Program-made: the position numbers and the translations under genes
The notes under the pieces: generated by a model
Seen by the model: only the letters and a program-made list of their open reading frames with translations
What the model was told of the DNA's origin: nothing
Database searches by the model: none
Shown: positions 5,706 to 64,000 of the stretch, piece by piece
Numbering within the stretch: position 1 is the stretch's first letter
Layout: every line of letters starts with the position of its first letter
Source: a bacterium
Lineage (GTDB): Bacteria; UBA8248
Assembly: GCA_965219955.1 (NCBI GenBank)
Contig: OZ244799.1
Coordinates: 3,648,001 to 3,712,000 of the forward strand
Reading direction: 5' to 3'
DNA: 64,000 nucleotides

Positions 5706-5713
5706 TTGATGTA

Positions 5714-6946: not shown

Positions 6947-7204
6947 CTCATCGTATCCACTGAATTCTCGCTATCCGAAAACGATGCTACAGCGCATCGC
7001 CCCGAGTCGTTTGGCGAGTTTTTCCGTACGGCGATTATGGCACGACGGACGGGATAATCAACCATCTTTCCGAGAGATAGCCCTTGTCACGTGGATGGGA
7101 TATGCTATCTTTTTCAGTTTTAGACCGGACATATAAGATAAGATAGATGAACACAGTTGCCTATATGAGCGAGTGAAAGAAAGGCCGCCGATGAAGGAGA
7201 GGGG

Positions 7205-10200: not shown

Positions 10201-10402
10201 CGGACTCGCCATGTCCACGCTCTTCACCCTGCTGCTGATACCGGTCGTCTTCTCGTTGTGGGTGGATTTCCTGGCGCTCATCCGGCCGGCCAGCTTCGCC
10301 GCTGCGGCCGCCGCGCCGAGCGGCGCAAGCGGCCCACCTTCTGAGCGCGTAAGGCCGAGGAAAGCGATCAACCTCATCGAACAAGAGGAAGAGGAAGCCT
10401 GA
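7205..10402 (+). CDS. RND efflux permease, AcrB/AcrD/AcrF family
   Basis: 1065 aa; GMVVDNSVVVLEN, GIVVNNAILL, RMRPIFMTT; RBS GAAGGAG. Confidence 0.95.
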   Translation: MNLPRASVKYPVTTTVGVILAVLFGAISLYRIPVQMTPTVDRPVITVETEYSGAAPLEVEEEVTKPKEEKLTSVEGLDRMTSRSEEGKSRVFLEFDWDVDKDVARLDVSEKLGLVRDLPDDSDRSTVNALNSDSESPIAWIIVETKLPINDVRVEGDAVIRPKLERVEGVGQVWMFGGRDREVRVTLDYTAMSARGITVSALREALRRENKNTKAGRIDEGKRRYAVRTVGNFTRLDQLRNTIIAQNGSGAVYLRDVAKVSFDYGDPTRYIRIRRVPTMAFGVLRKTGANTIEVMAGVKKAIAEVNETYAGRGIKLIQVYDETDYIHQSRSLVINNIFIGGALAIGVLLLFLGSLSSVMVIGVAIPVTVVSTFILIFVLDRSINIISLAGMAFAVGMVVDNSVVVLENIFRHREMGKSKWDAAVDGAQEVWGAVLASTLTTLAVFVPVVFVQDESGQLFRDIAIAISVAVALSLVVSISVVPMLSSRILSDAGKISPLTHFFRILGVYALGRFCRRIYVGVLAWLLRGVVRRLFVATGITAGAVALAVMFFPPIDYLPKGNRNLIFAFMRTPPGLNLDEMDRIVRILETRLDRVEEIDRFFAVARAQNPIVGMIAKKEYSDLASMRRLVRKLFGMMQGIPGVRAFVTQASLFRRRGSGFIGGINLQVDITGDSLSEIQRIAADVGARARGLDGVRFVNSSFDLGNPELQVHVDRQKAADFGLSVAEIGSVVETLVNGTKAGLFRDRGEELDIILRGPLSDFTRTQRIEEIKLHTPEGQVVSLADIAQVRSALGPTKVEHIDRDRSVSLTVNIGEELPLQDAIDKMKREVINPMRQTLPLGYSVDVSGRAKDLERTWGSLQWSLVLAVLITYLLMAALFEAWSYPLIIMFSVPFAATGGVLMVSLMNSIEPSVKMDTLTMLGFIILTGIVVNNAILLVHQALNHFRAGLPMREAILESARDRMRPIFMTTTTTVLGMLPLVLASGAGSELYRGLGSAVLGGLAMSTLFTLLLIPVVFSLWVDFLALIRPASFAAAAAAPSGASGPPSERVRPRKAINLIEQEEEEA

Positions 10403-10403
10403 G

Positions 10404-11368
10404 GGGGGTTGTTGGAAAAGTCCTCGTCAGTCGGTGTTGCGGTTGTAGCAGGGACAACCCTTTGGGGTTGTCCTGCCCTCCGTGGTTGTCCTTTTGCAGG
10501 ATGGTTCGAATCAGGACAGGCACGGAGGCCTGTCCCTACGGGGCGGCGCCTCCCCGGTCGGTTCGATTGCCCCCTCATTTGTTGAAAACCAACCCCCCTA
10601 CCCCCCCTTGACGGGCTTGTTGAAAAACCTTCTCGACTGGAATTGACGAGGGGTTTCTTATGCGCCCGGATTCGGGTGTCGTTATCGAGACAACTGATGC
10701 GATTCGCCACGAAGTCGTCATTCCGGCGAAAGCCGGAATCCATTTTGACTTTTCAGCGGGCGGGGCGGCCACGGTCTTGTTGTCGCGCGGCGTCCGGATG
10801 CGGAATCCAGAAGATTCGCCTCTCGTTTTTGTGTTCGATTCTGTCCCTCGCTACCCGAGAATAAAGCCATCCGAAGGAGGAGGCGAAAAGGCAAAGGCGA
10901 AAATGGATTCCGGCTTTCGCCGGAATGACGGCCAAAACCCGAAATCGGGCGGAGGAGCAGGCGGTCACTTCCTCCTCGATAGGGTTTTTCAACACCCCCT
11001 TGACAGGGGGGTATAAAAAGGCGATGCGCCCCCACCGGGCTGAGGGGGTTTTGCTTTTTCTTGCCCCCCTGACAACGGGTTGTTGAAAAAGTCCTCCTTG
11101 GTCGGAATTGGCCTCTCCCTCATCCCGAGTAGGTCCTGTAAACCACGTCGAAACTCCATCCTCATCCCGAGTAGGCGCGCTTGCGCGCCGTATCGAGGGA
11201 GCGCCCTTCGATACGCCGCCTTCGGCGGCTACTCAGGGTGAGGCAGGTACTGTGGCCTGCAAAGCGAGGAGCACGCGTTTGTTCAAATGTCGGCTTTTTC
11301 AACAACCCCGACGGGGGTAGGGGGGGTTGGTTTTATCCCCTGAGGAGCGGGGCTATTTCAACAACCCT
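10404..11368. mobile_element. Nested composite MITE/REP element (outer element with two inner TIR-bounded insertions)
   Basis: Three pairs of TGTTG(G/A)AAA..TTTCAACA ends; inner element 10613-10999 flanked by TTGAC duplication; several palindrome types. Confidence 0.75.
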
Positions 11369-38890: not shown

Positions 38891-39814
38891 CTATTTCTTT
38901 TTGCCTTTTCCCTTCGTGGATATTTTGGCAGGCTGCGACTTGCTGATCTGCATGAATACCTTGCCATCCTTCAATATGGTAACACCTCCCGTCGATTCGC
39001 TGATAGCGAACGATATGGCCGTGCTTACTTCCGTTATACCCGCTCCGGCCATATGACGCGAACCCAGCCCCGGGGGCAAATCATTTTCAGGTGCCGCGTT
39101 CAGGTGTCTGCCGGCGGCTTCGATGATTCCATCTCCTCGAATGACGAATGCGCCGTCAATGGCGCTGAATTCCTTGATGGTTTCGCGCAGGGCCGGATCC
39201 ATGATGTTTCTTTGCTCTTCCGGGTATCCATGAAAGGGATTGATGACGAGTTGGCGTGAATACTGGAGCACGAGATCATGGTCTCCCAGAACGAAAAGCG
39301 CGCCGCGGGGTCTTCCCTCCCGCCCTTCGGCGCCGAGTTCGAGAGCGAGCGACAGGACCGTTTCGAACACCTTCGGATCTACGCCTTCAACGGCGCTTTG
39401 CGTTTCCGATGTCTGGAGCATTTCTTTTTCGCGGTCCAGATGAAACACCATGAGCGTGTCGATTTCTTCGTTCTCGGGCAAGCCCGAGAGGCAAACCACG
39501 GTGTCGTTCTGCGTGATGGAGCCTTCGCTCAAGGCGATTACGACGCCCATCTTGATGATGTCGATACGGTTCAGGGACAAGGCGGGCAATTGCAATACCT
39601 TGCAATCCCGTTTTTCCAATTCCTCGTAGAGATCAGGGGAGCAGGTGGTGGTGAAATGCTCCACGCCGACGGGGAGATCCATCAAGGCGTCCAGATCCTT
39701 CATCGCGTCCGCGTGAATGAAAACGGCCTTGGCCTCCAGTTCGTTGCAGATTTGCGAAGCCGCGGCGATGATGCTTTCACTGAGACCGGCTTGTTTTTCG
39801 ATCGCTGCTCTCAC
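38891..39814 (-). CDS. Diadenylate cyclase (DisA_N domain, DacZ-like architecture)
   Basis: EGREG..GALFV, IDGAF, GLGSRHMAG, ISESTG; N-terminal regulatory domain. Confidence 0.85.
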   Translation of the reverse strand: MRAAIEKQAGLSESIIAAASQICNELEAKAVFIHADAMKDLDALMDLPVGVEHFTTTCSPDLYEELEKRDCKVLQLPALSLNRIDIIKMGVVIALSEGSITQNDTVVCLSGLPENEEIDTLMVFHLDREKEMLQTSETQSAVEGVDPKVFETVLSLALELGAEGREGRPRGALFVLGDHDLVLQYSRQLVINPFHGYPEEQRNIMDPALRETIKEFSAIDGAFVIRGDGIIEAAGRHLNAAPENDLPPGLGSRHMAGAGITEVSTAISFAISESTGGVTILKDGKVFMQISKSQPAKISTKGKGKKK

Positions 39815-43663: not shown

Positions 43664-44845
43664 ATGCCCAGAAGAAGCGAACGCAAGCTTACCAAACGCG
43701 TGGTCGACGCGCTATCCATCGAGAAGGACGACGCCGTCTTCTGGGACCGGGAACTGGCGGGCTTCGGGGTGCGGGTCTACGCCACGGGCCGGAAGGTCTA
43801 CGTGGTGCAGTCACGGGGTCCGTGGGGCCCCAGACGCGTGACGCTGGGCAAACACGGCGAGATGTCGTGCGATGAGGCGAGGAAGACGGCGGCCGGCGTC
43901 ATCGACCGCATCAAGCGGGGCGAGGAGCCAGAGCCCAAGCCGCCCGAGGCCGCGCCCACGGTGGCGGGTCTTGCCGGGCGCTTCATGCGCGACCATGCCG
44001 AAACGCACTGCAAGCGCAACACCGCCAGGACGTACCGCTCCTATATCGGGAACCACATCCTTCCGGCGCTGGGCGGGAAGGCGCTCGCCGAGGTCGGCCG
44101 GGCAGAGATATCGGCGTTTCATCACAGCCTGCGCGCGACGCCCGGCGCGGCCAACGCGGTCCTGGGACTGCTCTCCAGCATGTTCAAGATGGCCGAGGCG
44201 TGGGGCCTGGTTCCTCCCGGGAGCAACCCGTGCCGGGCGGTGCGCCGCTACCGGACGCGCAAGTGCGAGCGGTTCCTGACGCAGGATGAATTCCGCCGCC
44301 TCGGACGTGCGCTCCGTGACCTGGAGACGGAGGGGAAGGGGTGGCCGGTAGCGGCCGCGGCGATCAGGCTCCTGGCGCTGACCGGGTGCAGGCGGAGCGA
44401 GATACTGGATCTCAGGTGGGACGACGTGGACCGCACGGCAGGCGAGTTGCGCCTGAGAGACTCCAAGGCGGGCCCGCGCATGGTGCCCCTGACCAAACCC
44501 GTCAAGAGGGTGCTGGAGGGGATCCCCCGCTCGCCGGACAATCCCTGGGTGTTTCCCGCAAGGTACGGGGACGGCCGCCTGACGGACCTCCACCACTACT
44601 GGGAGGCCGTGAGGGAGCGGGCGGGGCTTCATGACGTCCGCATTCACGACCTCAGGCACTCGTACGCCAGCCGGGCGCTGGCGCTCGGCGAGAGTCTGTC
44701 TGCGATCGGCAGGCTGCTCGGCCACCGTCACGTGGTGAGCACGGCGCGCTACGCGCACCTGATGCGCGATGCCGAGAAGGCGGCGGCCGCCCGTGTGGGG
44801 GAGAGCATCGGCGTCCACGTCACGAACGGGAGGATGGAGCGATGA
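43664..44845 (+). CDS. Tyrosine integrase with arm-binding domain (DUF4102 type), copy 1
   Basis: WD..LAGFGVRV; TGCR, DSK, HDLRH, LLGH, TARY catalytic set. Confidence 0.95.
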   Translation: MPRRSERKLTKRVVDALSIEKDDAVFWDRELAGFGVRVYATGRKVYVVQSRGPWGPRRVTLGKHGEMSCDEARKTAAGVIDRIKRGEEPEPKPPEAAPTVAGLAGRFMRDHAETHCKRNTARTYRSYIGNHILPALGGKALAEVGRAEISAFHHSLRATPGAANAVLGLLSSMFKMAEAWGLVPPGSNPCRAVRRYRTRKCERFLTQDEFRRLGRALRDLETEGKGWPVAAAAIRLLALTGCRRSEILDLRWDDVDRTAGELRLRDSKAGPRMVPLTKPVKRVLEGIPRSPDNPWVFPARYGDGRLTDLHHYWEAVRERAGLHDVRIHDLRHSYASRALALGESLSAIGRLLGHRHVVSTARYAHLMRDAEKAAAARVGESIGVHVTNGRMER

Positions 44846-46011
44846 CGACGAAGCCCAAGATGAAAACGCTCTCGAACCGGCTGGTGAGAAAACTCACGGC
44901 CGAGAAGGACACGGTGTTCTGGGACCGCGACCTCACAGGCTTCGGCGTCAGGGTCTATCCCACCGGCTCAAAAGTCTACATCGCCCAGGCGCGGGGACCG
45001 GAAGGCCCCAAACGCGTGGCGGTGGGCCGTCACGGCGTGATACACGCGGAGGAGGCCAGGAAGCGCGCGGCGCTCGTCATCGCGCGCATCAAGGCGGGCG
45101 AGGAACCTGTGCCCGAGCCGATGAAGCCGGCCTGCGGTCCCACGGTGGCCGAGCTCGCGAAGCGCTATCTCGCGGAATACGTCTCCGTGCATTGCAAGCC
45201 GCGCACCGTGAAGACGCTCCGCTCCGTGGTCGGCAGGAACATCGTGCCCGCGCTTGGCGCGATGCCGATATCCGCGGTCGAGCGCAAACACGTGGCGGAA
45301 CTCCACGGGCGGCTGAGCGCCAAGCCCGCGGCGGCGAACCATGCCGTGCGGGCGCTGTCCGCGATGTACCGCCTCGCAGGTGAATGGGGTCTCGTGGCCG
45401 AGGGCGTGAACCCGTGCCGCGCCATCGCCGAATACCCGGTCGGCCGTCGGGAGCGCTTCCTGACGGAGGCGGAATTCGACCGCCTGGGAGAGGCGCTTGA
45501 CGAGACAGAGGCCGGGGGCGGCGCGTCGGCGAGCGCGGTGGCGGCGATCAGGCTCCTGATCCTGACCGGGTGCCGGAAGTCGGAGATCCTCACGCTGCGC
45601 TGGGAGGAGGTGGCGCTCGATCAAGCGGAACTGCGGCTCTCAGACTCCAAGACGGGCGCGCGGGTCGTTTCGCTCTCAGGTCCCGCGGTCAAACTCCTCG
45701 CGGGTCTGCCGCGCACCCCCGGCAATCCCTGGGTGCTCCCCGGCAGGAAGCCGGGGACGCACCTCCGGAAGCTAGACGACGCCTGGCAGTCCGTCCGCTC
45801 GCGCGCGGGGCTTCATGACGTGCGCCTCCATGACCTGCGCCATTCGTTCGCCTCGAGAGCTCTCGCGCTCGGCGAGGGGCTTTCCACGATAGGGAAATTG
45901 CTCGGCCACGCCCGGATCGAGACCACCTCGCGCTACGCACATCTCGCGCGCGATTCGGTGCGCGAGTCCGCCGAGCGGGTCGCCGCGAGCATCGCAGAAG
46001 ACCTGCTGTAG
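44842..46011 (+). CDS. Tyrosine integrase with arm-binding domain, copy 2
   Basis: Same motifs intact; ATGA overlap with copy 1. Confidence 0.95.
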   Translation: MTTKPKMKTLSNRLVRKLTAEKDTVFWDRDLTGFGVRVYPTGSKVYIAQARGPEGPKRVAVGRHGVIHAEEARKRAALVIARIKAGEEPVPEPMKPACGPTVAELAKRYLAEYVSVHCKPRTVKTLRSVVGRNIVPALGAMPISAVERKHVAELHGRLSAKPAAANHAVRALSAMYRLAGEWGLVAEGVNPCRAIAEYPVGRRERFLTEAEFDRLGEALDETEAGGGASASAVAAIRLLILTGCRKSEILTLRWEEVALDQAELRLSDSKTGARVVSLSGPAVKLLAGLPRTPGNPWVLPGRKPGTHLRKLDDAWQSVRSRAGLHDVRLHDLRHSFASRALALGEGLSTIGKLLGHARIETTSRYAHLARDSVRESAERVAASIAEDLL

Positions 46012-47527: not shown

Positions 47528-50344
47528 CTATATCTCCATCAGGCGATCGAAACGCGTCCTCTCCATCGCGGGCCCCCGCCCTTCACCCGGATGCAGCGCT
47601 CCCTTCTGCTTCTCCGTCCCGATGCTCCCGGCCTTGCCCGCTCCTATCGCCTCCAGCGCCGCGATCCGCTCCCCGGTCGCGGCTTCGAGCCGCTCGCACA
47701 GGGCCTTCGCGTCGTCGGTCACGAGTTCCGCCCGGTCCCGGGCGCGGCTGATCTCGACGTAGAGCGTCTTCTGGTTGGTGAGCTCGGGGTGGTTCGCCTC
47801 CATGGCGGCGATGACGGTATCGACCGTCCGGCCCTGGAAGGCGTGTACGGTCGAGGCCCAGGCGCGGTCGACGTGTCGAAGCTGCGGATCGGCGCTCGTC
47901 ATGTCGAGGACGCGCCCGTCCTCGATGCGGAAGGTGATGCGCCCGCCCCTGACGTCCGTCACCTCGGCGGCCTGGCTGTTCATGAGACCAAGATCGGGAT
48001 CGTTCCGGGTCCAGCGGACCTTGTCGCCCTGGCGCAGCTCCATATGCTCGACGCGGTATACCTCGACACCGCCGCTTCGCGCCGCGAGACGGCGGGGTTC
48101 CCAGCGGATTTCCCGCCCGTGCCCCCCTTCGAGGATGACCGCGCCGCCCTTGTGGTCGACACCCGCCACGCGCAACTCGTCCCCCTTCTCGACGCCGATG
48201 CGCTTGTAGGGGCGGTGGAAGGCCACGACGTCGCCGGGTGAATAGTTCGCGGCGAGCGATTTCTCGGGATTCGTGTAGCCGCGCGAGACGAGGCGTTCCG
48301 TGAGAAAAGCCGGACCGTGGACGACGCCCTCCCTGACCAGGCGCTCGCGGACGATGGCGTTGATCTTCTCGCGGATCGCATGGCTCGGCGCCATGAGCCC
48401 GGCGTTTGCGCGCGCCTCCGGCGATAACGCCAGCCAGCGCGCGGCAGCGGCGCCCGCGAGGTTGTCGGGTTTCACTTCGGCCACGTTGGAGCCCAGTTTC
48501 CCGAAGGCGCTCTTCACGTCGCCCGCGAGCGTGGACTCGACGGCGGCTTTCAGGTCCTGGTCGCGCTGACGCATGATCTCCTGCATCACCGCCGTCTTCA
48601 TTCCCGCTGCCTGCAGCTGCGCGAAGGGTTTGCCGGCGTCCACGGCGTCGAGCTGTTTCGCATCGCCGACGAGAACGACCCGCGGCAAGCGAAGGACCTC
48701 CGCGATACGGAAGAGTTCGCGCATCTCGCGCGTGGAAGCCAGCGATCCCTCGTCCACCACGAGGGCGGTCCTGCTCCAGGCGGCGCGCATCTTTTTCTCG
48801 GCCGTTCTCGTGAGACGGCCCTGGGCGACCCCTGCGTTACGAGCGAGGAAGCGCTGGAGCGTCTCGCTCTCGATGCCCGCTTCCGCTTCGAGTGTCCGCG
48901 CGGCCGAGGCCGAGGGGGCCAGGCCCCGGACCTCGTGGCCGCGTTTCTCGAAGAGCGCGCGGGCGCGCCTGAGCATCCTGGTCTTGCCGGTGCCGGCGTA
49001 GCCCTGCACGCCGACGACGCGGTCAGGGTCCGTGAGGATGAGCTTGACCGCTTCTCGCTGGCCATGTGTCAGCGGGCCGTTTCTGAGCGCTTTGTCCACG
49101 GTGCGGCTGCGCATGGCGGGCTCGCCCCGCCCCCTGCCGGCCTCCACCAAGGCGATGGTCTCGCGCTCGGCCGCCGCGGCCTTCTCCGTCGTGAGCATGT
49201 CCTTCACTCCGGGCAAATCCGCCGCGTGCAGGACGCCGGTCTCCTCCAGCCTCTTGACCTCGCGCTCGGCGCCCGTCATCGACACCGCGCCCGGCCGCCA
49301 GGCGAGCGCGCCCGCGAGCAGGGCCGCGCGGTCGAAGACGGCCTCTCGCTCCGCCAGGTGCGCCACAGCCCATTCCACGGCCTCGCGCGCGGGTTCGGCT
49401 TCCCTGGATGGAGCGCTCCTCGCCTTCGCCCGGTCCTTGAGAGCAGCGGCGTCGAAGCCGAGATCGGCGGCCTGTTTCTGCCAGGCGGCCATGAGCGTCC
49501 CCTTGTCTGCCTCCCGTTTGGGGTCCCGCGTCATGAGCGTGACCCGCTGTGCCGCGCGCTGGTTCTCAGCCGTGGCGCCAAGTCCCCGCTCTTCCATCGC
49601 CTTCTCGATCTCCGCCCGCCGGGTCGAGAACGCCTCGATCACCTCCCTGGGTACCCCCGCGATCTCGAAGCGCCCGTCGGCGTGGGTCTTCTCGACCCGG
49701 TAGCCGAACCCTTCGAGGCCGCGTGCGAGTTCGGTCCGGTATATCGCGCCGATCAGCATCTTGCTCGCATAGAGTTTCTCGTTGGACATGGTGCGCCACT
49801 TGCCGTCCGCGCCACGGACCATGTTGGCGATCACGGCGTGCGTGTGGAGCAGGGGGTCGAGGTTGCGCGAGGTGTCGTGCCGGAAAGTCGCGACCACGCT
49901 CTTCTGGTCGCCCACGCGGACCATGCGCCCGGTCGCGGGGTCGCTCATCCTGGTCTCGGCGACGTTTCGCTCGACCCAGTCCAGGGTGCGCGCGACGGCC
50001 ACCTGGTGGGCCCAGATCGCGCGCCCGTCGCCGCCGACGTACGCGAGCAGGGAGACGGACTTGGGCGCCGAGAGGGTAAGGTCGCGTCCCGGGCGGTGGT
50101 GGAACGACCCGTCCTTGCCCGGGCGGCCGAGCCTGCGTCCCGAACCGTCGGGGACCACGCCTTCGAGCACCGCGCGGAGGGTATCGGGGTCGACCGGACC
50201 GGTCAGGCCCAGGTCCTCAGCACCCCTGCCTCGCCAGGCGCTTGCCTCCCGATGGATCGGGTCGCCCTTCGCGTAGTAGTCGTCGCGCTCGAAGTAGGAC
50301 GCGCACTGCGCGGGGGAGGCTACGGCGCCGATCGACGCGACCAT
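47528..50344 (-). CDS. MOBF (TrwC/TraI-type) relaxase-helicase
   Basis: YFERDDYY, DLTLSAPKSVS, HDTSRNLDPLLHTH, FSTRR; helicase GYAGTGKT, VVDE, GD.KQL. Confidence 0.95.
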   Translation of the reverse strand: MVASIGAVASPAQCASYFERDDYYAKGDPIHREASAWRGRGAEDLGLTGPVDPDTLRAVLEGVVPDGSGRRLGRPGKDGSFHHRPGRDLTLSAPKSVSLLAYVGGDGRAIWAHQVAVARTLDWVERNVAETRMSDPATGRMVRVGDQKSVVATFRHDTSRNLDPLLHTHAVIANMVRGADGKWRTMSNEKLYASKMLIGAIYRTELARGLEGFGYRVEKTHADGRFEIAGVPREVIEAFSTRRAEIEKAMEERGLGATAENQRAAQRVTLMTRDPKREADKGTLMAAWQKQAADLGFDAAALKDRAKARSAPSREAEPAREAVEWAVAHLAEREAVFDRAALLAGALAWRPGAVSMTGAEREVKRLEETGVLHAADLPGVKDMLTTEKAAAAERETIALVEAGRGRGEPAMRSRTVDKALRNGPLTHGQREAVKLILTDPDRVVGVQGYAGTGKTRMLRRARALFEKRGHEVRGLAPSASAARTLEAEAGIESETLQRFLARNAGVAQGRLTRTAEKKMRAAWSRTALVVDEGSLASTREMRELFRIAEVLRLPRVVLVGDAKQLDAVDAGKPFAQLQAAGMKTAVMQEIMRQRDQDLKAAVESTLAGDVKSAFGKLGSNVAEVKPDNLAGAAAARWLALSPEARANAGLMAPSHAIREKINAIVRERLVREGVVHGPAFLTERLVSRGYTNPEKSLAANYSPGDVVAFHRPYKRIGVEKGDELRVAGVDHKGGAVILEGGHGREIRWEPRRLAARSGGVEVYRVEHMELRQGDKVRWTRNDPDLGLMNSQAAEVTDVRGGRITFRIEDGRVLDMTSADPQLRHVDRAWASTVHAFQGRTVDTVIAAMEANHPELTNQKTLYVEISRARDRAELVTDDAKALCERLEAATGERIAALEAIGAGKAGSIGTEKQKGALHPGEGRGPAMERTRFDRLMEI

Positions 50345-54105: not shown

Positions 54106-55065
54106 ATGACTGCCACCGCGACTCACGACCACAAGGAGAGCATCATGCACGAGGTTGACAACATCGAAGCGCAGAACGAATCCTTCACCGCCATGGTCTG
54201 CGAACAGGCCGCGCTGTTCGGCGCGACCCCGGGCCCGGACGAATTCGACAACCGGCCCGTGTGGGGCGAGGCGGAGTCCACCGCCGGCGTCCTCAAGGCA
54301 TTCCACCTGCTCGCCGAAGCAGCACCCGACGGCACGCAGTTGGCCGACGAGCGAAGAAACCTCCTGTGGGGCTTCGTCAACACCCTCGACGCCCAGACAC
54401 AACGGCTCGACCGCGCCGCCGACAAGCTCATCCCCGGCATCCGTGAACTCCAGCGCGAGCAGGACGGCTCCGAGATCCGCTCCCGCGAACTCGAACTCGC
54501 GACCGACCGGGCGCAAAATCTCTCCGCCCGCCGCGACGCGTTCGAGGTGCTGCGCGACACGGCCGCCGAGGCCTACCGCGTCGAGACCGGCGAGGTCTGG
54601 CGGCCGAGGCGAGGCTCCCACGTCTCGCAGACCGGCAAGCTGACCTCTGCGGTGATCGAGGCGCGCGACTTCCAGCGCGCGAAAAAGGACCGCGAGAACA
54701 CAGCCCACCTCCCCCAGGGAACGCTCGTCGCCGTCGCGGGCGGCAAGGAAGCCACCGACTCAGGTCTTATCATCGGCCAGCTCGACAAGCTGAAAGCCAA
54801 GTACGCCGACGTCGTCCTCGTCCACGGCGGCGGTCCCGGTGCGGAGAAGGTCGCGGCAGGATGGGCCGAGCGGAACGGCGTCCACCAGATCGTCTGCAAG
54901 CCCGACTGGGACGCCCACGGTCGGGCCGCTCCCTTCAGGCGCAACGACGAGCTGCTCTCCCTCCTCCCCAAGGGCGTGATCGCGTTCCCGGGTTCGGGCA
55001 TCACCGACAACCTCGTCGACAAGGCCCGAAGCCTCGGCATCCCCGTGCAACGCGTGGCCGCCTGA
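54106..55065 (+). CDS. DUF2493 (YspA/SLOG family) protein
   Basis: VAVAGG, LVHGG.PGAE..AAGWA, PDW..HGRAAPFRRN, IAFPGSG. Confidence 0.88.
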   Translation: MTATATHDHKESIMHEVDNIEAQNESFTAMVCEQAALFGATPGPDEFDNRPVWGEAESTAGVLKAFHLLAEAAPDGTQLADERRNLLWGFVNTLDAQTQRLDRAADKLIPGIRELQREQDGSEIRSRELELATDRAQNLSARRDAFEVLRDTAAEAYRVETGEVWRPRRGSHVSQTGKLTSAVIEARDFQRAKKDRENTAHLPQGTLVAVAGGKEATDSGLIIGQLDKLKAKYADVVLVHGGGPGAEKVAAGWAERNGVHQIVCKPDWDAHGRAAPFRRNDELLSLLPKGVIAFPGSGITDNLVDKARSLGIPVQRVAA

Positions 55066-55543: not shown

Positions 55544-55675
55544 GTTCATGAAACGGCGTCGCGGGTATCATTTTTGCGCCCGAGGTGGGTGTGTTTGTTA
55601 CAAGAAATGAGAATTATTGCGGTCGTTTTGTGATCAAAACGAATGAAGATTTTCTCGAGAGGAGAGACGAAACGG

Positions 55676-56020
55676 ATGGTTCAAACGATACAGAAGAACA
55701 TCAGAGTCACGCCCGAACAGTGGAAACGAATCGAAAATGAGGCCGAAAAACGCGAAATGTCGCCCAACCGACTGGTGGTAGAGCTCGTCATGGAAGCCCT
55801 GGAGCGCCGCGAATGGCCCCGCACGGAGGCGGAAATCCACCTGCTTCGCTCAGCCATGTTCACCGCACAGGCCATCATTCGCGACATGGAGAGAGACGGG
55901 CGGGAGTCAGAGATCGATCAAATCAGCAGGAATATCTCCGAAGTCGCGCCTGAATTGCCGGGTAAATCGGTGGAGGATCCGCAAGATAGGATGGATTCGG
56001 GGAGGCCAATGCCTGAATGA
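55676..56020 (+). CDS. Ribbon-helix-helix DNA-binding protein
   Basis: IQKNIRVTPEQWKRIENEA...SPNRLVVELVMEAL; RBS GAGGAG. Confidence 0.7.
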   Translation: MVQTIQKNIRVTPEQWKRIENEAEKREMSPNRLVVELVMEALERREWPRTEAEIHLLRSAMFTAQAIIRDMERDGRESEIDQISRNISEVAPELPGKSVEDPQDRMDSGRPMPE

Positions 56021-57832: not shown

Positions 57833-58768
57833 CTATGTCGACACGGCCAGGATACGGTTCACTGGTTCGAGGTACTTGCCAAGCGTCAAGGCGTCGTATC
57901 TATTGAAGAACGTTTCGAAGATAAAACGGTGCCGGTCGCCGTTATCATCGGCCAGGATGAGTTCATCTTCTCCCAGGGGGCCGCCTCCTTGCGCGCCGCA
58001 ATAGCCGGCCACAGCCGAGAACAATTTCGCTGCCGAGGTTGTTCCGAATTGTCTCGCAAAGGCCGACGACTGGATAAAGTGCCGACAGGGAGCCGAGGGG
58101 TCAAAATCTTCGGAGCGTTGCGACACATGAGGGTGATCGGTGATCATCCCCACAACCGGAAGTTCGACGCCGGCGGACTCGATGAACCTGTATAGCGTCG
58201 TCGAGAGCGTGTTTCCAAAGACACCTCGCAGCTCTCGGACTGCTTTGAGCGATGGCTCAAAAGAACGGGCCTCTTCAGTGAAACGTTCACCTAAAAACAG
58301 CAGTTTCCCGGCGGCAAAATTGGCTTCCGCCTCGACCTGCTCCTTGCAGTTGCGAGACAGCGTTTGAAGATTGTCTCCGAGCATTACCTCTGCGTGCCAG
58401 GGAATGATGTCATGGCAGATTTCGTGCGTCTCGTTCCATCGGTGCTTAAGTTTGGGCAGAGTCTTATCCAGCATAATCCGCTTCCGATCTGGAAGGTAAA
58501 GCGCCTTGAGCGAGGACTTCCGGATCGCGTCGATGAGCAACATGGGCCGCTTGTACACTTGGATGCCGGCGACGCGGATCCGACTGACCGCCTCATTCAA
58601 GATGCCGGGATCATCGGCAGTGTAGAACGCGAGATCGAGATGCAACAGTTCGCGCACATCCTCCAGCCGGAGCGGGGGATCGGGATGGCCGAGCCCCCGC
58701 AGCACACGCTCGACGCGACTCTCGATGTCCCTGGCCGTCTTGGCGGAAATGATTCGGTTTTTGGCCAA
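57833..58768 (-). CDS. ImmA/IrrE-family zinc metallopeptidase
   Basis: HEICH (HExxH), EAEANFAAGKLLF, C-terminal extension. Confidence 0.88.
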   Translation of the reverse strand: MAKNRIISAKTARDIESRVERVLRGLGHPDPPLRLEDVRELLHLDLAFYTADDPGILNEAVSRIRVAGIQVYKRPMLLIDAIRKSSLKALYLPDRKRIMLDKTLPKLKHRWNETHEICHDIIPWHAEVMLGDNLQTLSRNCKEQVEAEANFAAGKLLFLGERFTEEARSFEPSLKAVRELRGVFGNTLSTTLYRFIESAGVELPVVGMITDHPHVSQRSEDFDPSAPCRHFIQSSAFARQFGTTSAAKLFSAVAGYCGAQGGGPLGEDELILADDNGDRHRFIFETFFNRYDALTLGKYLEPVNRILAVST

Positions 58769-58785
58769 ACCCGCAACTCCCGTCT

Positions 58786-59271
58786 TTATTTCTGTTCGCT
58801 GAGCACGGAGATGAACGCTTCCAGAGCCGCACCCTCTTCGGGCGTCAACTCCGCCGTCGGCTCCGACCGCGCGGCAAAGCGGACAGCCTCATCGAACAAC
58901 CTCGTATCCTTCGGCGCGGTCAGTCCGGCCACCTGCATGAGACCGGACCGCGGCAACTTAAAGTAATTGGCAAGCTGGTAGGTCGTACGCAACTCCGGCT
59001 TGTGATGCGGATTTCTCTCGATTTCGACCAAGTCCGTTATGTCCACATCCGCGTCATCGGCAAGCTTCTCAAGACTGATGCCGCGCTGGCGGCGCATCAG
59101 GCTGACAAAACGACCGAATGCGATGTTCGGGCCATCCTCGTCAGTCACCGTGGCCGGGATGGTTTCGCCCTCGAATATCGGGTCGATTGCCAGCCCACCG
59201 GCTCCGATTTCGGCATCACCCTCGAGTTGCGCCATCCGGATGCACCACTCCTTGCTGATTTTCATATTCAT
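58786..59271 (-). CDS. XRE-family HTH protein
   Basis: FGRFVSLMRRQRGISLEKLADDADV..LVEIE; LANYFKL. Confidence 0.85.
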   Translation of the reverse strand: MNMKISKEWCIRMAQLEGDAEIGAGGLAIDPIFEGETIPATVTDEDGPNIAFGRFVSLMRRQRGISLEKLADDADVDITDLVEIERNPHHKPELRTTYQLANYFKLPRSGLMQVAGLTAPKDTRLFDEAVRFAARSEPTAELTPEEGAALEAFISVLSEQK

Positions 59272-59903
59272 CTTTTTCTCCCCTTGGCGACGAAGGCCTG
59301 CGCCTGCTCGGACGTCATCTCGAAGTAGCGAAGGCCTCCATAGTCGGGATCGGCTCCAAGGTCCGTCATGCCGCAGGTGTTGGCGTAGAAGTCGTTCGCT
59401 TGCGGCAGCGAATGAAGGCCGATCCGTCCGTTAAACTCCAAGTCCTCGCTCAACGCGACGGCAGCCCTAATCAGGATACTGCCGACACCGCGATATCGTG
59501 GAGAATCGAACAGTTCCGCGCGATTCCACGGCGCATTCTCTACAAACGCCACGTAGACGAGATGCTGCCCTTCCTGGCTGTCGATCCGGCATCGCCCCTT
59601 CACCGTATCGACAATCATCATGCCCTGCGTCAGGCCATCGCAGACGATGCTGAAACAGGGATTGGCCAACATCTCCTGTATCGCCGCGACTTTCCTGCGC
59701 CAGTCCCAACGACGGCTTTGCGGCCAATGACGGCGTTCGACGCCCGAGCGCCTGAGGCGCTGAATCGCCTTGAACAACTCCGGCATCCATTCCCCTTCCC
59801 AATCAGCGAGTTGCTGTTCGGTGATCGCGTGCCAAAGCTCCGCAGCCTCCGGCTCGTCACGCTCTACGTTTAGCAGGTGGATCTCGTCCACTCTGACATT
59901 CAT
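59268..59903 (-). CDS. GNAT family acetyltransferase (putative toxin)
   Basis: APWN, acetyl-CoA motif RYRGVG, IGLHSLPQA..FY. Confidence 0.85.
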   Translation of the reverse strand: MNVRVDEIHLLNVERDEPEAAELWHAITEQQLADWEGEWMPELFKAIQRLRRSGVERRHWPQSRRWDWRRKVAAIQEMLANPCFSIVCDGLTQGMMIVDTVKGRCRIDSQEGQHLVYVAFVENAPWNRAELFDSPRYRGVGSILIRAAVALSEDLEFNGRIGLHSLPQANDFYANTCGMTDLGADPDYGGLRYFEMTSEQAQAFVAKGRKR

Positions 59904-60112
59904 AGCATCATGACCTCGGCCTTCTCCTTGGTCTTCTCGTCCTCGAAGAAAAGCTTGTCACCGTTCTCAAGACGCGCCTCTATCACCTGGTATATCCGCA
60001 AGGCCTGACGCAGAAGAGCCGTCTTGCTCAGGTCCTTCTTCGCACTCAGATTCCCCAGGACCTGCATCTCGGCTTCCGTGAGATTGAGAGTCATCGTTTT
60101 CTTTGTGTTCAT
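59900..60112 (-). CDS. RHH/CopG-type regulator (putative antitoxin)
   Basis: KTMTLNLTEAEMQVL..LS..SKTALLRQAL. Confidence 0.85.
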   Translation of the reverse strand: MNTKKTMTLNLTEAEMQVLGNLSAKKDLSKTALLRQALRIYQVIEARLENGDKLFFEDEKTKEKAEVMML

Positions 60113-60156
60113 CTTCTTCCCCCCACTTGTTGTTCGCTCATCTAAGTGTCAACTCT

Positions 60157-60185
60157 AGCATAGGGGATAAATGGCCAAACGTCAA
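60157..60185 (-). promoter_or_regulatory. Sigma70 promoter of the four-gene operon
   Basis: TTGACG-17 nt-TATGCT, flanked by two GTCAACT direct repeats (60148, 60181). Confidence 0.65.
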
Positions 60186-60210
60186 CTTATAAATATATTA
60201 TATATAGCCC

Positions 60211-60240
60211 TTGACTAGCTAATAAATAAGTATATATTAT
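60211..60240 (+). promoter_or_regulatory. Divergent sigma70 promoter toward the lipase gene
   Basis: TTGACT followed 16-18 nt later by TATATT/TATTAT. Confidence 0.5.
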
Positions 60241-60407
60241 ACCTCAGATGGCCAATGGTGGCTAACAACATGAGGAACCAGGACGATGGATAATCAGACC
60301 GAACAGCAGCTCAAGGACACCGAAAAGGCGGCTCGAGCGTGTCGACAGGTCCGCTTCAAGACGCCGAAGCCGGACGCAACAGTTATCAGACAACGAGGAG
60401 GGAGATT

Positions 60408-61472
60408 ATGTTAACAGCAACCAGCAACGAGATTGCCCAGAAGATTCTCGCCAAGAAAATGCCAAGCTACCGGAAGGCCTACAGTGACCGCATGGCGTGG
60501 CTCATGGCGTACATGTCCGAATTGGCCTATCTCAAATTCGATAAACCTGGCACTGATAGTGACATCACCCTGATGCTAGTTGAGCGCGCACTAAAAAGTG
60601 TGAAAAAAGGAACTGCCGAGAAGATCATCGGGGCTATTCGAAAAAGCTACGGGTACGATCACGAAGCCGAAAAAGATAAACTGAAACGCTCTTTGGAGCA
60701 GATTGGCTGGAAGTTGGCCGAGACGATCAGCGTTAACGCTACACAAGCTTTTGTGGCGTATAACGACGAATTCGCAGTCTTGGCGTTTCGTGGAACTGAA
60801 GCAGACCGAATCCAGGATATCAGGGCGGATATTAGGGCGACTCAGACGCCGAATCCGATGGGAGGACAGGTGCATTCGGGGTTCCAGGGTCAGTACGACG
60901 ATGTCGAAATCGCTGTCGAAGATGCGTTAGACAAAGACGAAATCAAGGGTAAGCCACTGTTTCTCACCGGGCACAGCTTGGGAGGGGCTGTTGCGACAAT
61001 CGCCACAAGGCAGTTAAACGCGGAACGCCAGATTGCGGCGTGCTATACGTTCGGGTCTCCACGAGTCGGGTCTGAAGAGTGGGTTGCACAGGTTAAGACC
61101 CCTATCTACCGGATCGTGAATTCAGCCGATCCCGTACCGGGGGTACCTTTCAGCGGGACTATGATCTTTTGGGGTGTGAAAGTATTTCGAACATTAGGGC
61201 GATTGATCCCCTATGGGCGGATATTGGTAGCGTTTGGTAACTGGCTGGAGAGGGCTATGTCAGGATACACGCATACCGGAAATATGCGTTTCCTGACGGA
61301 TTGCAAGGGCGGAGATCTGTCAAAAGCCGAATTACTATATACGGTGGGATGGGGTAGACGGTTTCGAGGCGCGCTGAGCGGGATTAAACCTTGGGGAAAG
61401 GTTCTCGGTGATCATGGAATCGCAATCTACCGACAGAAGATGATGTGCGTGGCTGACAAGAAGAATCCGTAA
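60408..61472 (+). CDS. Class 3 lipase family protein
   Basis: LAFRGTE, VHSGF, TGHSLGGA, TFGSPRVG, DPVP, terminal DH; RBS GAGGAGGGAG. Confidence 0.9.
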   Translation: MLTATSNEIAQKILAKKMPSYRKAYSDRMAWLMAYMSELAYLKFDKPGTDSDITLMLVERALKSVKKGTAEKIIGAIRKSYGYDHEAEKDKLKRSLEQIGWKLAETISVNATQAFVAYNDEFAVLAFRGTEADRIQDIRADIRATQTPNPMGGQVHSGFQGQYDDVEIAVEDALDKDEIKGKPLFLTGHSLGGAVATIATRQLNAERQIAACYTFGSPRVGSEEWVAQVKTPIYRIVNSADPVPGVPFSGTMIFWGVKVFRTLGRLIPYGRILVAFGNWLERAMSGYTHTGNMRFLTDCKGGDLSKAELLYTVGWGRRFRGALSGIKPWGKVLGDHGIAIYRQKMMCVADKKNP

Positions 61473-62147: not shown

Positions 62148-64000
62148 ATGCGGGATGAAGCGAAAAAAGTGGAGCAGTACTCTGTGCAGGACGTAATCTC
62201 ACTACCTGAATTGGTTTGGAGCAAGCGGCACGCACTCGGTACAATCAAACATTTGGTGCGTCCTCAACAAGACGATGCTATTAATGAGAAGACTCGGATC
62301 CGCGTATCCGCACGAATTGAAGAACCATTCCTCGTCCTTGCTTCCGGTGAAAAGGTTGTTCTGACTCGCCGACGCACATGTCCGCATCCGGACGATGCTG
62401 ACGGTGTTCTCCAACTACAAGACGATGGGTCTTATACTTGGTTGTCTCACCGTCTTCTTGAGAAGCAATATCAGGAAAATGAATGGAAGCGCCTAAAGAC
62501 TGATATATCTTTGTCTTGGCAGCCTGGTATTCGTTATGTCGCTGAAGAGATTAATAACGCTGGTAATATTGTCCGTCCAGGCTTGAGACCACCGCAAATC
62601 GGGGCACTTCATGGAATCGGCGCGCACTGGAGCCTACATCGGACGCCTGCCACAATAATCATGCCCACCGGTACTGGCAAAACTGAAACCATGATCGCTG
62701 CGCTTGTTGGCGAAATTCATGGTTCTCTCTTGGTAGTTACCCCGTCCACTTCACTGCGCAGACAGACACAGCGCAAGTTCCTGTCACTTGGCTTGCTAAG
62801 GCAGCTGGGTGTTATTGGCGACGAGGTACGCAATCCGATTGTTGGAACAATCACCAAGAGGCCGCGCGCTGAGGATGATCTTGATATTTTCACGGATTGC
62901 CATGTCGTCATAGCGACAATGAGCGTGGTCAGCCAAGGTACTGCCACCGATCTGGGATCCCAGATCGCAGATCGGTGTAGCAGCTTAATCATTGATGAAG
63001 CTCACCACGTAACTGCAAAGAGTTGGTCTTCATTCCGGGATCACTTTGCCGATCGACGTGTATTGCAGTTCACTGCCACGCCGTACCGACGAGACGGCAT
63101 GCTTGTGGATGGCGACATTATTTATTCGTATCCCCTACGGCGAGCCCAAGAGGACGGTTATTTCAAGCCAATCAATTTTGAACCCGTTTGCGAGATTGAC
63201 GGGAAAGATGCAGATTACGCCATTTCCAGGAAGGCCGTCGAACAACTCAAGGCTGATCTCGATGCAGGCTTTGATCATATCTTGATGGCGAGGTGTGGCC
63301 GGATTAGTCGGGCAGAACAGATCCTAAATACCTATCAGAAGCTATGTCCTCAGTACAATCCTGTTCTTGTTCATTCTGAGAACCCTGATGCCTACAAACA
63401 TCTCGAAAATTTGTTTTCGGGAAAAAGCCGAGTTGTGGTCTGTGTTGAAATGCTAGGCGAGGGTTTTGACTTGCCACAGCTAAAGATCGCCGCCGTTCAC
63501 GATACTCATAAGAGTCTCGCTATATTACTACAGTTCACAGGGCGTTTCACACGAACAGCATCTCGCAATATCGGCGATGCGACGGTTATCGCGAACATTG
63601 CCGACCAAGAGGTTTCTGCCGGACTGGAAAGGCTTTACAGCGAAGATGCAGATTGGAACTATCTGCTGGCTGAATTTAGTTCGAATGCGGCTAGAGAACA
63701 TAAGGAACTCGTCGAATTCTTATCACAATCTGCACCACTTGCAGAGCATTATGATCAAAAAGGTCAAGTTTCTCTATCACCGAGCCTTTTTCGGCCCAAG
63801 TTCAGCGCCGTAGCTTACCGAGCCACTGAATTCAACGCTTCCCGATTTTACAATGCTATTTCCGATTCAACGGAAGTTCACAACGCATGGCTTCACGCGG
63901 TATCCAATACGCTATATTTTGTTACCAAAAGTGAACCACCCGTTCAGTGGACGCGAGCTAAATCTGTTCACGATAGGGAGTGGCACCTGTTTGTTGTTCA
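62148..64000 (+). CDS. SF2 DEAD/DEAH helicase (ResIII-like), 3'-truncated by window
   Basis: Manual translation: GLRPPQIGALH, MPTGTGKTETM, IIDEAHH, QFTATPYR, LGEGFDLP, QFTGRFTR; absent from ORF track. Confidence 0.9.
   Translation, partial: MRDEAKKVEQYSVQDVISLPELVWSKRHALGTIKHLVRPQQDDAINEKTRIRVSARIEEPFLVLASGEKVVLTRRRTCPHPDDADGVLQLQDDGSYTWLSHRLLEKQYQENEWKRLKTDISLSWQPGIRYVAEEINNAGNIVRPGLRPPQIGALHGIGAHWSLHRTPATIIMPTGTGKTETMIAALVGEIHGSLLVVTPSTSLRRQTQRKFLSLGLLRQLGVIGDEVRNPIVGTITKRPRAEDDLDIFTDCHVVIATMSVVSQGTATDLGSQIADRCSSLIIDEAHHVTAKSWSSFRDHFADRRVLQFTATPYRRDGMLVDGDIIYSYPLRRAQEDGYFKPINFEPVCEIDGKDADYAISRKAVEQLKADLDAGFDHILMARCGRISRAEQILNTYQKLCPQYNPVLVHSENPDAYKHLENLFSGKSRVVVCVEMLGEGFDLPQLKIAAVHDTHKSLAILLQFTGRFTRTASRNIGDATVIANIADQEVSAGLERLYSEDADWNYLLAEFSSNAAREHKELVEFLSQSAPLAEHYDQKGQVSLSPSLFRPKFSAVAYRATEFNASRFYNAISDSTEVHNAWLHAVSNTLYFVTKSEPPVQWTRAKSVHDREWHLFVV

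Follow-up and report, generated by a model that had tools for sequence, protein, structure and literature searches.

A conserved four-gene cassette encoding RHH, GNAT, CapH-like, and M78 peptidase proteins beside divergent immune operons

The moment at which costly or abortive bacterial immune systems (CBASS and Bub among them) are turned on is decided by CapH/CapP-type regulators, and the biological output of Bub is still unknown. In the accessible portion of Lau et al. 2022 (10.1101/2022.04.27.489752), CapH is described as a helix-turn-helix (HTH) repressor (residues 2 to 67, along with a C-terminal domain for dimerisation) whose conserved binding element lies upstream of the -35 hexamer, and CapP as an M78-HTH-GAF peptidase that single-stranded DNA (ssDNA) switches on and that cuts CapH between F82 and R83. 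The same portion places CapH/CapP also beside "6e.2" multi-ubiquitin/E1 operons, the available text of Calloji 2026 is a second source for the biology of the pair, and in that of Ye et al. 2024 CapH and CapP adjoin 168 of 544 Bub operons. Here, a four-gene cassette encoding a ribbon-helix-helix (RHH) protein, a GNAT protein, an XRE repressor, and an M78 peptidase is compared with these regulators. The cassette lies in the window, which is the whole 64,000-nucleotide (nt) stretch of a bacterial contig (OZ244799.1, positions 3,648,001 to 3,712,000) that was analyzed.

Related gene pairs have been listed as toxin-antitoxin (TA) modules. The part of Makarova et al. 2009 that was available lists three separate TA-like pairs (GNAT-RHH, GNAT-Xre, and COG2856-Xre) and contains the proposal that COG2856 proteases might cleave the Xre antitoxins of RelE/PIN toxins, and the available text of PMC10440598 describes RosmerTA, in which diverse toxins are paired with an HTH+ImmA antitoxin. 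A preliminary description of the window had linked an RHH-GNAT pair and an XRE-peptidase pair in one circuit. On balance, the comparison presented here slightly favors the interpretation that the cassette acts as a portable and self-contained control unit for whichever immune operon lies back to back with it, in the form of an expanded, protease-gated CapH/CapP (IrrE/DdrO-type) module that would release the GNAT.

A linked four-gene unit and its divergent neighbors

The cassette consists of four intact open reading frames (ORFs) on the minus strand. The first encodes a CopG-like RHH protein of 70 amino acids (aa) (59900 to 60112), a candidate binder of the phased boxes described below, and the second encodes a divergent GNAT of 211 aa (59268 to 59903) with an N-terminal beta-hairpin and long helix. 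These are followed by the ORF for a CapH-like XRE repressor of 161 aa (58786 to 59271) and, from a TTG start, the ORF for an IrrE/CapP-like M78 metallopeptidase of 311 aa with a GAF/PAS-like C-terminal domain (57833 to 58768). The ATGA overlaps of the RHH and GNAT genes and of the GNAT and XRE genes, noted in the preliminary description, were located as plus-strand tcat at 59900 to 59903 and 59268 to 59271, and the HExxH peptidase gene indeed starts 17 nt past the XRE stop codon, with GGGAG upstream and HEICH at residues 115 to 119 of the protein.

Beyond the window, the four genes recurred as one unit in many genomes. A GNAT-centered scan of species-representative genomes produced 58 loci, and from an M78-centered metagenome scan the best 80 of 393 relatives were kept. 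The RHH, GNAT, XRE, and M78 genes had a constant order in the 58 genome loci, which belonged to Alpha- and Gammaproteobacteria, Acidobacteriota, Latescibacterota, Dehalococcoidia, Leptospira, Spirochaetia, Nitrospira, Gemmatimonadota, and Rhodothermales. Where the contig left room among the 80 metagenome loci, the XRE gene was present in 63/63, the GNAT gene in 59/59, and the RHH gene in 55/56. Of 138 loci, 93 had all four genes on one strand at 85% or more of their length, and contig ends cut many of the others. The GNAT start overlapped the final RHH codon identically in all 78 loci in which both gene ends were aligned, so that the coupling of these two genes is far above chance; the GNAT and XRE genes abutted or overlapped in 87 of 101 loci, and the M78 start lay 9 to 25 nt past the XRE gene in nearly all. 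Median identities to the window proteins were 77% (RHH), 68% (GNAT), 62% (XRE), and 64% (M78). The cassette is thus an obligately linked unit across many phyla.

The limits of the unit coincide with those of its genes. DNA similarity to the window (blastn) stopped at about 57870 to 60103, the edges of the cassette genes, in most loci, and no relatives of the flanking genes of the window were found in any of the 138 loci. GNAT relatives were present on 54 plasmid records. A transposon-like unit with conserved flanks or terminal repeats was considered and set aside, as DNA homology ended at the gene edges in most loci. The left-hand neighbors in the window (ORFs of 109, 217, and 125 aa) and the lipase gene on the other side were likewise rejected as conserved partners, with no match in any of the 138 loci. 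In four loci (L007, L012, L023, and L055, at about 5625 to 5940 in each), an insert of about 300 nt separated the GNAT and XRE genes; it matched window positions 59293 to 59494 again (blastn) and so resembles a partial tandem duplication of the 3' end of the GNAT gene.

The XRE and M78 proteins form a pair of the IrrE/ImmA/CapP kind, as had been proposed from the window alone. When the four proteins were compared with PADLOC, the XRE matched capH (1.5e-3), HTH_VI (3.7e-8), and, weakly, RmrA (2.2e-4), the M78 protein matched capP (3.3e-9) and, weakly, RmrA (0.013), and the GNAT and RHH proteins matched nothing. In Pfam, the XRE matched HTH_19 (6.4e-13); its best PDB match was 7t5u (E = 0.0032), a 69-residue chain deposited beside CapP 7t5t that we infer to be the HTH domain of CapH. 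An HTH at residues ~51 to 116 is followed by a conserved C-terminal domain (~116 to 161), the first helix of which contains the conserved residues V130-R131, and by analogy this position is predicted to resemble the CapH cleavage site at F82-R83.

The M78 protein fell just under the Pfam cutoff for Peptidase_M78 (1.6e-4; 21.9 bits versus 22). Its profile matched the PDB entries of IrrE (3dte, E = 0.0027), an IrrE orthologue (8slm, E = 0.0078), and CapP (7t5t, E = 0.076) at E ≤ 1. Both the HExxH motif and the downstream glutamate zinc ligand were found, and H115, E116, H119, E148, and C141 were invariant in 21/21 sequences, the spacing of 29 from histidine to glutamate being that of Thauera CapP (H100-E129). 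In a model built from 21 close sequences, residues 159 to 303 were most similar, among 48,161 chains, to PrpR 6d2s (Z = 8.6, root mean square deviation [rmsd] 2.7, 111 residues aligned; rank 1) and to PprI 8sln, a structure with ssDNA (Z = 8.4, rmsd 4.2, 122 aligned; rank 2), with CapP 7t5t at rank 4 (Z = 7.1, rmsd 3.1, 121 aligned). The model, with Z values that are modest, suggests that the peptidase carries a C-terminal HTH/GAF-like sensor domain.

The XRE and M78 genes have been annotated before in two species. For most operons, Table S1 of Ye et al. 2024, as far as available, gives CapP and CapH gene identifiers beside Ubl; for Sphingobium wenxiniae and S. faniae, it gives three unlabeled identifiers between CapH and Ubl. 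These are the species of two genome loci (L032 and L030, respectively) with all four genes, the RHH and GNAT genes being at the unlabeled position. The labels in both species indicate that the authors of the Bub survey counted these XRE/M78 orthologues as CapH/CapP and, in the portion available, left the RHH and GNAT genes unremarked. The words "GNAT," "acetyltransferase," and "ribbon-helix" did not occur in the texts of Lau 2022, Ye 2024, or the CapK/CapS paper, nor "acetyltransferase" in that of Calloji 2026, nor "GNAT" in the NetFlax/Rosmer paper (PMC10440598), and a literature search that reached few subscription papers returned no paper naming CapH, CapP, and a GNAT together. The arrangement had not been recognized as a named system; the XRE and M78 half already stands as CapH+CapP in the Bub table for the two Sphingobium species, and the four-gene form was not found in the literature searched.

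In the window, the divergent neighbor of the cassette is a gene for a class-3 lipase-like alpha/beta hydrolase (60408 to 61472, plus strand; Lipase_3, 5.4e-23) with a GHSLGG nucleophile elbow. Its ORF is open from a GTG at 60339, and the ATG at 60408 follows GGAGGGAG. The lipase had no match in PADLOC. The leader of about 160 nt between the cargo promoter and the lipase gene also contains a 42-codon plus-strand ORF (60286 to 60414) with a plausible ribosome-binding site, which may be a leader peptide or a chance occurrence.

Most genome loci have a type II Bub operon as the divergent neighbor, with a DUF6791-ThiF E2-E1 fusion (Bub) in 31/57 and DUF6527/BubE in 25/57, together with Multi_ubiq. 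Bradyrhizobium loci had type III CBASS with SMODS, HORMA, and SAVED, and the cargos of other genome loci included a ThiF/DUF7665 set, an AAA ATPase, and a DNA methylase. A scan of the metagenome cargo covered 98 of 140 candidate divergent ORFs in 46 of 51 loci, with near-duplicates (L095, L100, L115, and L121), one locus with short ORFs only (L118), and most third ORFs dropped. Genes for ubiquitin-like proteins (Ubl), E1, E2, or JAB proteins were divergent from the cassette in 39 of the 46 loci, and the other seven had one type III CBASS, one DUF7665 only, and five with nothing recognizable or an insertion sequence element. On Nitrobacter hamburgensis plasmid 2 (RefSeq), a CBASS cyclase, a hypothetical protein, an AAA ATPase, and a SAVED protein are encoded opposite divergent cassette genes annotated as a CopG-family RHH, a GNAT, an HTH regulator, and an ImmA/IrrE peptidase. 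Distant proteobacterial copies (GNAT identity of 36 to 38%) kept the RHH-GNAT-HTH order, with an ImmA/IrrE- or M78-like gene next in two of the three, and adjoined DUF2188 or a ThiF/JAB set. The suggestion that neighboring effectors are the regulated output agrees with these divergent Bub, CBASS, and lipase genes and with the shared promoter and its conserved operators.

The shared promoter and its phased boxes

The only region conserved outside the cassette genes is the one upstream of them. In the window, this bidirectional promoter/operator region (60113 to 60260, both strands) contains promoter-like sites and phased boxes of the form T[AG]GC[CT]A. The cassette promoter-like site is on the minus strand (60157 to 60185; TTGACG, 17 nt, TATGCT; 9/12 consensus matches), and that of the cargo is on the plus strand (60211 to 60240; TTGACT, 16 or 18 nt, TATATT or TATTAT; 10/12 matches); TAGCCA-17-TATAAT is also promoter-like (10/12). 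These sites are consensus matches only. The boxes are TGGCCA at 60172 to 60177, a degenerate TAGCCC at 60205 to 60210, TAGCTA at 60216 to 60221, and TGGCCA at 60249 to 60254, all in one 11-nt register; they fill the spacer of the cargo promoter and span both promoters.

The boxes were strongly enriched and phased in the other loci. A set of 50 unique upstream regions had 2.04 strict TAGCTA-like hexamers per 200 nt, control windows had 0.06, and 37 of 56 successive spacings were exactly 11 nt. With the relaxed pattern T[AG]GC[CT]A, 99 unique upstream regions contained 231 boxes versus a shuffle average of 16.1, and 159 of 211 pairwise distances were multiples of 11 (shuffle mean, 0.11; maximum, 2). 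The Nitrobacter upstream region had four perfect TAGCTA boxes in exact 11-nt steps. A conserved core, TAGCTA(G/T)TCAA, was present in the upstream regions of other loci; on the opposite strand it is the -35 (TTGACT or TTGAAT) of the divergent promoter, and the -35 of the window cargo is the reverse complement of AGTCAA. In most of 50 loci, TTGA[CT] was found 40 to 75 nt 5' of the RHH start.

Cooperative RHH dimers of the CopG/Arc type use a short palindrome once per helical turn, and by analogy the boxes, which repeat a palindrome once per turn, are assigned to the RHH protein as their probable ligand. In one Bradyrhizobium barranii plasmid locus (L145:2783-2977 and the upstream 170 nt), the RHH beta-strand is MTLILS, elsewhere TMTLNL, and the boxes are ATGGCC/TGGCCA, not TAGCTA; this is a possible case of protein-operator covariation, although a single one, and the window itself contains TGGCCA.

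The promoter had been described as near consensus and flanked by GTCAACT repeats. The promoter-like sites were found, and GTCAACT does occur twice (at 60148 and 60181), but as a feature the repeat did not hold up. Six families of direct repeats of 7 to 10 nt, GTCAACT included, were found in the same 341 nt, one GTCAACT copy contains the -35 TTGACG, and the second copy was not conserved in other loci; given the five other families and this lack of conservation, the repeats are probably chance and were rejected as an operator.

The promoter and cargo data bear on the possibility that the cassette is a stand-alone, Rosmer-like, protease-gated TA or abortive infection system, in which the GNAT would be the toxin, the XRE (with or without the RHH) the antitoxin, and the M78 protein the trigger, with the cargo genes mere neighbors. 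The weak RmrA matches of both the XRE and the M78 protein, the movement of the cassette as its own unit, the varied toxins paired with HTH+ImmA antitoxins in the accessible RosmerTA account (PMC10440598), and the TA-like GNAT-Xre, GNAT-RHH, and COG2856-Xre pairs in the available part of Makarova 2009 are all consistent with such a system. However, the cargo is almost always divergent and adjacent, it is nonrandom (as in the metagenome loci with Ubl-conjugation genes), the boxes lie in the -35 and spacer of the cargo promoter, and XRE/M78 orthologues carry the label of Bub regulators, CapH+CapP, in two species in the available part of Ye et al. A stand-alone system is accordingly considered rather improbable.

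The GNAT protein and its predicted partner

The cassette GNAT belongs to a large family without a Pfam model. Its relatives included 816 matches in a 90%-identity collection, none of the 120 listed having a precomputed Pfam domain, and the family comprised 1,288 clusters at 50% identity (E ≤ 1e-3). The window protein had no match in Pfam, NCBIfam, or PADLOC, PDB sequence searches with the single sequence or a profile yielded nothing useful, and a scan of viral contigs with the GNAT alignment gave 34 pattern matches and no relatives. For structural comparison, the window protein was aligned with 49 of 150 listed representatives, chosen as full length, and Acetyltransf_10 was matched weakly by 19 of these 50 family members. 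The AlphaFold2 model from the 50-sequence alignment had a pLDDT of 96.7, and a Foldseek search with it returned 218 PDB matches at E ≤ 1e-3, those listed being GNATs. The features of the GNAT superfamily (the fold, the R/Q-x-x-G-x-G/A loop, and a tyrosine at the catalytic position) were all found: the acetyl-CoA loop is R136-x-x-G139-x-G141, with G141 nearly invariant in the alignment, and Y173 is present and invariant.

The fold does not point to one GNAT class. With VIA-align, the best match of the model was 8gxf, a PA3270-like enzyme (Z = 14.2, rmsd 2.9, 165 residues aligned), TacT3 followed at Z = 13.4 with AtaT and KacT at about 12, and RimJ, NatD, Ard1, AtaT, and KacT were all within about two Z units of the top match. 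With all GNAT classes tied at Z of 12 to 14, assignment to a named subfamily by structure was abandoned. The pI of this acidic protein is 5.6 (family median, 6.1), which argues weakly against tRNA as its target; as a guess, the target would be a protein rather than tRNA, a candidate being the conserved lysines in the tail of the RHH. The expectation that the GNAT would belong to a family of TA toxins was not borne out, as this acidic protein matches no such family specifically.

A partner for the GNAT was suggested by the XRE. The first ~35 residues of the N-terminal extension of the XRE are highly conserved (MKIEISKEWCLRMAQLEGDAEIGAG), with W9, E17, G25, and P31 invariant, and a word-limited search with this segment gave 59 matches, all proteins of similar size and most of about 160 aa with an HTH. 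The complex was modeled from the GNAT, two RHH copies, and XRE residues 1 to 50, with the XRE peptide as the only scored partner. The peptide was docked on the GNAT with an ipSAE of 0.83 in 3/3 runs, compared with 0.01 for the best of three controls, and the score was lost in the control in which the GNAT was swapped for an unrelated protein. Of 157 solved complexes, 116 attained this ipSAE mark, as did 2 of 215 mismatched pairs; the benchmark applies only roughly here, to a multichain job with its own alignments. The runs agreed in at least 66% of contacts, and the partner pLDDT was at least 60.

In the model, XRE residues 1 to 5 and 7 to 27 contact GNAT residues 8 to 11, 118 to 123 (beta4), and 163 to 166 (beta5), as well as residues 137 to 144 (the R-x-x-G-x-G loop and helix 3) and 171 to 173, including Y173. 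The predicted interface has 120 to 129 confident contacts over about 25 residues. By this prediction, the N-terminal peptide (~1 to 35) occupies the cleft of the GNAT for acetyl-CoA and substrate. The model, in which the RHH was present and the XRE peptide alone was scored, listed no contacts with the RHH. The earlier proposals for the GNAT fared differently: a link between the two halves of the operon, with XRE removal licensing the GNAT, gains from the predicted binding of the XRE N-terminus, whereas the RHH protein gives way to the XRE as predicted partner, with the proviso that only the XRE peptide was scored.

The N-terminal motif was retained in distant relatives of the cassette. In plasmid loci with GNAT relatives at 35 to 50% identity, the next downstream gene kept the motif, [ED]-W-[LC]-x3-hydrophobic-x2-[ED]...[IV]-[GE]-[AC]-G, in 8/8 examined. 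Four of these eight partners were cyanobacterial; they lacked an HTH and any other clear Pfam domain, and beside these four GNAT/partner pairs no RHH gene was annotated. The cyanobacterial plasmid pairs (L142:4899-6193, L143:1923-2965, L146:2935-4138, and L147:2935-4044) consist of a GNAT gene (35 to 40% identity) and then a gene for a protein of 157 to 215 aa that begins "...EAED..G.IGAG" like the XRE, with no RHH, HTH, or M78 gene annotated; the Trichormus pair sits between a DNA methyltransferase gene and the DISARM gene drmD. This two-gene module may be an ancestral pair of a peptide plug and a GNAT.

Alternatively, the GNAT could be purely regulatory, acetylating the XRE N-terminus or RHH lysines so as to adjust DNA binding or stability and taking acetyl-CoA as a metabolic input, with no toxicity. 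The acidity of the protein would fit this role, as would the presence of RimJ, RimL, NatD, Ard1, and PatZ (N-terminal or protein acetyltransferases) among the top structural neighbors, the RHH tail with its conserved lysines kept to the last residue, and the predicted position of XRE residues 1 to 5 and 7 to 27 in the catalytic cleft, where a substrate would also lie. Yet the size of the modeled interface is more like that of an inhibitor than that of a substrate, and the cyanobacterial partners keep the peptide without a Pfam DNA-binding domain, which is better explained by neutralization. A purely regulatory GNAT is therefore regarded as unlikely, although it is a serious competitor to a GNAT held inactive by the XRE peptide.

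The RHH protein was the most conserved of the four (81% mean column identity over 23 sequences), and the conservation extended through its C-terminal tail. It had no Pfam, NCBIfam, or PADLOC match, although it fits CopG/RHH_1 (an N-terminal beta-strand and two helices) by profile; the best PDB match of the family profile was CopG 2cpg (E = 0.01, residues 3 to 43), and its Atlas matches were RHH_1 clusters at 0.97. The conserved tail of 22 residues, ...KLFFEDExTKEKAEVMML, is kept to the last residue, and among the lysines K30 and K64 are invariant and K53 and K62 nearly so. The role of an AtaR/TacA-type antitoxin that had been assigned to this protein is not supported, as neither DUF1778 nor any other Pfam family was matched and the protein is CopG-like instead.

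These data also bear on whether an independent RHH-GNAT addiction module of the AtaRT/TacAT class was simply inserted between CapH/CapP and their promoter, with no cross-talk. The order of the RHH and GNAT genes with their ATGA overlap is the classic arrangement of such modules, and GNAT-RHH pairs are plasmid-enriched TA-like modules in the part of Makarova 2009 that was available. Against two separate modules, the four-gene linkage is near absolute in the clade, with the GNAT and XRE genes mostly abutting or overlapping, and the RHH lacks DUF1778 or any other Pfam match. Furthermore, the N-peptide specific to this XRE family is predicted to bind the GNAT, with a score that was lost on GNAT replacement, and the same N-terminal motif follows GNAT relatives without any RHH. 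Such an insertion is held to be very improbable.

Proposed working of the cassette, its setting, and known systems

Under the favored interpretation, that of a portable controller of the adjacent immune operon, CopG-like RHH dimers, possibly with the XRE as a CapH-like corepressor, would occupy the array of TAGCTA-like boxes at rest. As the array extends over the -35 and the spacer of the cargo promoter and on to the cassette promoter, both promoters would be kept low. The N-terminal peptide of the XRE, in the acetyl-CoA/substrate cleft, would hold the GNAT inactive, as antitoxin peptides do. Upon DNA damage or phage infection, ssDNA would activate the M78 peptidase, which by analogy with CapP and IrrE would cut the XRE, probably in its C-terminal domain. 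The cut would have two outputs, in that the adjacent immune operon (in the window, the lipase gene) would be derepressed and the GNAT, a candidate toxin-like second effector, would be freed.

A more specific version of this interpretation is put forward tentatively: the cassette might be a signal-gated TA system inside an immune-operon controller, in which one cut opens the operon and uncorks the GNAT. The pair of plug and GNAT would then be an ancient two-gene core, found also on cyanobacterial plasmids with partners that lack an HTH, and some share of the regulators described as CapH+CapP beside Bub and CBASS operons might be four-protein systems with acetylation as an output. The CapH/CapP half of such a switch is known; the predicted docking of the XRE N-peptide on the GNAT would be new, and in the literature searched no GNAT was found described in such switches.

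Several observations weigh against the favored interpretation. The docking is a measure of model confidence that supports binding without showing it, the XRE peptide could be a substrate of the GNAT instead of an inhibitor, and solved complexes of GNAT toxins with antitoxin peptides (6gtq, 7ak9, and 9ils) are among the structural neighbors, so that likeness to them could inflate the docking score. In structure, the GNAT resembles Rim-like and Nat enzymes as closely as it does TA toxins, and it is acidic, which tRNA-acetylating toxins are not known to be. The boxes could be assigned differently, since pairs of TAGCTA could also serve an HTH dimer. For the peptidase, C141 is off the CapP switch-cysteine position in the HMM (hidden Markov model) alignment, and the model has a pLDDT of 66.7 overall and is poor for residues 1 to 106, the N-terminal half being of low confidence. 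A cysteine-switch loop is present in 33% of CBASS CapPs in the portion of the published account available.

Gene content also counts against it. No lipase relative was found beside the cassette in the 138 other loci. The M78 gene was absent from 11 of the 58 genome loci, two of them cut by contig ends, so that about nine loci with room keep the RHH, GNAT, and XRE genes with no peptidase (L006, L008, L011, L013, L031, L037, L041, L042, and L047); the XRE was truncated as well in some of these. Either such copies are in decay, or the protease is not always needed and three genes suffice for a functional form.

If an RHH protein and a GNAT held by the repressor belong to a sizeable branch of these regulators, a second output or input, enzymatic in nature, would have to be added to models of immune-operon control. 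Work with Bub or CBASS systems cloned with "CapH+CapP" could then be confounded by two overlooked genes. The pair of peptide plug and GNAT would also be a new TA-like family, the GNAT alone filling the clusters enumerated above. A compact, portable module with a simple phased operator could serve, moreover, as a damage-inducible expression switch.

The genomic setting in the window is consistent with foreign origin. Searches of the window proteins against protein families identified two tandem tyrosine integrases (43664 to 46011) and a TrwC relaxase-helicase (47528 to 50344). A YspA/SLOG-family protein (54106 to 55065) and a weak NikA-like RHH protein (55643 to 56020) are encoded in the same block of 63 to 70% GC as the integrases and TrwC. 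The cassette and its lipase gene are in an adjoining block of 44 to 52% GC, in a genome of about 60 to 64% GC; the difference between the two blocks marks the region as a mosaic in which at least two segments are foreign. That the cassette is cargo of a mobilizable island, as the preliminary description had it, is plausible from the integrases, the relaxase, and the mosaic GC.

The right flank (62148 to 64000) and the sequence beyond it (L060:148-3447, 6716-7861, and 9604-10881) resemble a defense island. ORFs there encode a 1,099-aa ResIII/DEAD helicase with PADLOC matches to PbeA and to type IV restriction endonuclease-like proteins, a protein of the DUF2235 family with a phospholipase domain like that of the type VI secretion effector Tle1, and an FRG-domain protein matching PDC-S15. 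A DUF2235 gene also adjoins the cassette on the Nitrobacter plasmid. Elsewhere in the window, just outside the high-GC island and unrelated to the cassette, a minus-strand gene (38891 to 39814) encodes a diadenylate cyclase domain of the DisA type together with a DacZ_P sensor domain, and a gene for an HtrA-like protease adjoins it.

Among known systems, the cassette is most readily compared with CapH/CapP, whose relatives include IrrE/PprI-DdrO and ImmA-ImmR. As in CapH/CapP, an XRE repressor gene is directly upstream of a gene for an IrrE-like peptidase that has the HExxH motif and ends in a GAF-like domain, and the pair is divergent from a Bub/CBASS-type immune operon, with a conserved operator near the promoter of that operon. 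Unlike the two-gene form, RHH and GNAT genes stand between the promoter and the repressor gene in all but one of the loci with room. The cassette XRE also differs from Escherichia coli CapH (HTH at residues 2 to 67) in its N-terminal extension of about 50 residues with the predicted GNAT-docking peptide, and, in the HMM alignment, the conserved Cys141 of the M78 protein falls outside the switch-cysteine position of CapP.

The cassette shares with AtaRT, TacAT, KacAT, and GmvAT an RHH gene that overlaps the downstream GNAT gene and, by prediction, a GNAT blocked by a partner peptide in its acetyl-CoA/active-site cleft. In contrast to these GNAT/RHH systems, the peptide predicted to block the GNAT comes from the N-terminus of the XRE encoded downstream rather than from the RHH C-terminus, the RHH (70 aa, CopG-like) lacks DUF1778, and the GNAT, at 211 aa, has an extra N-terminal hairpin and helix and is acidic. 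With RosmerTA (RmrT and RmrA), the cassette has in common an effector accompanied by an HTH protein and an ImmA/M78 protease in a defense context, the RmrA matches being weak; it differs in that the HTH and M78 proteins are separate and not fused in one RmrA, the effector is a GNAT, and there is an extra RHH and wiring to a divergent cargo promoter. Finally, like the CopG/Arc repressors, the RHH protein has a profile match to CopG and short palindromic boxes at one per helical turn, and unlike them it carries a 22-residue conserved C-terminal tail.

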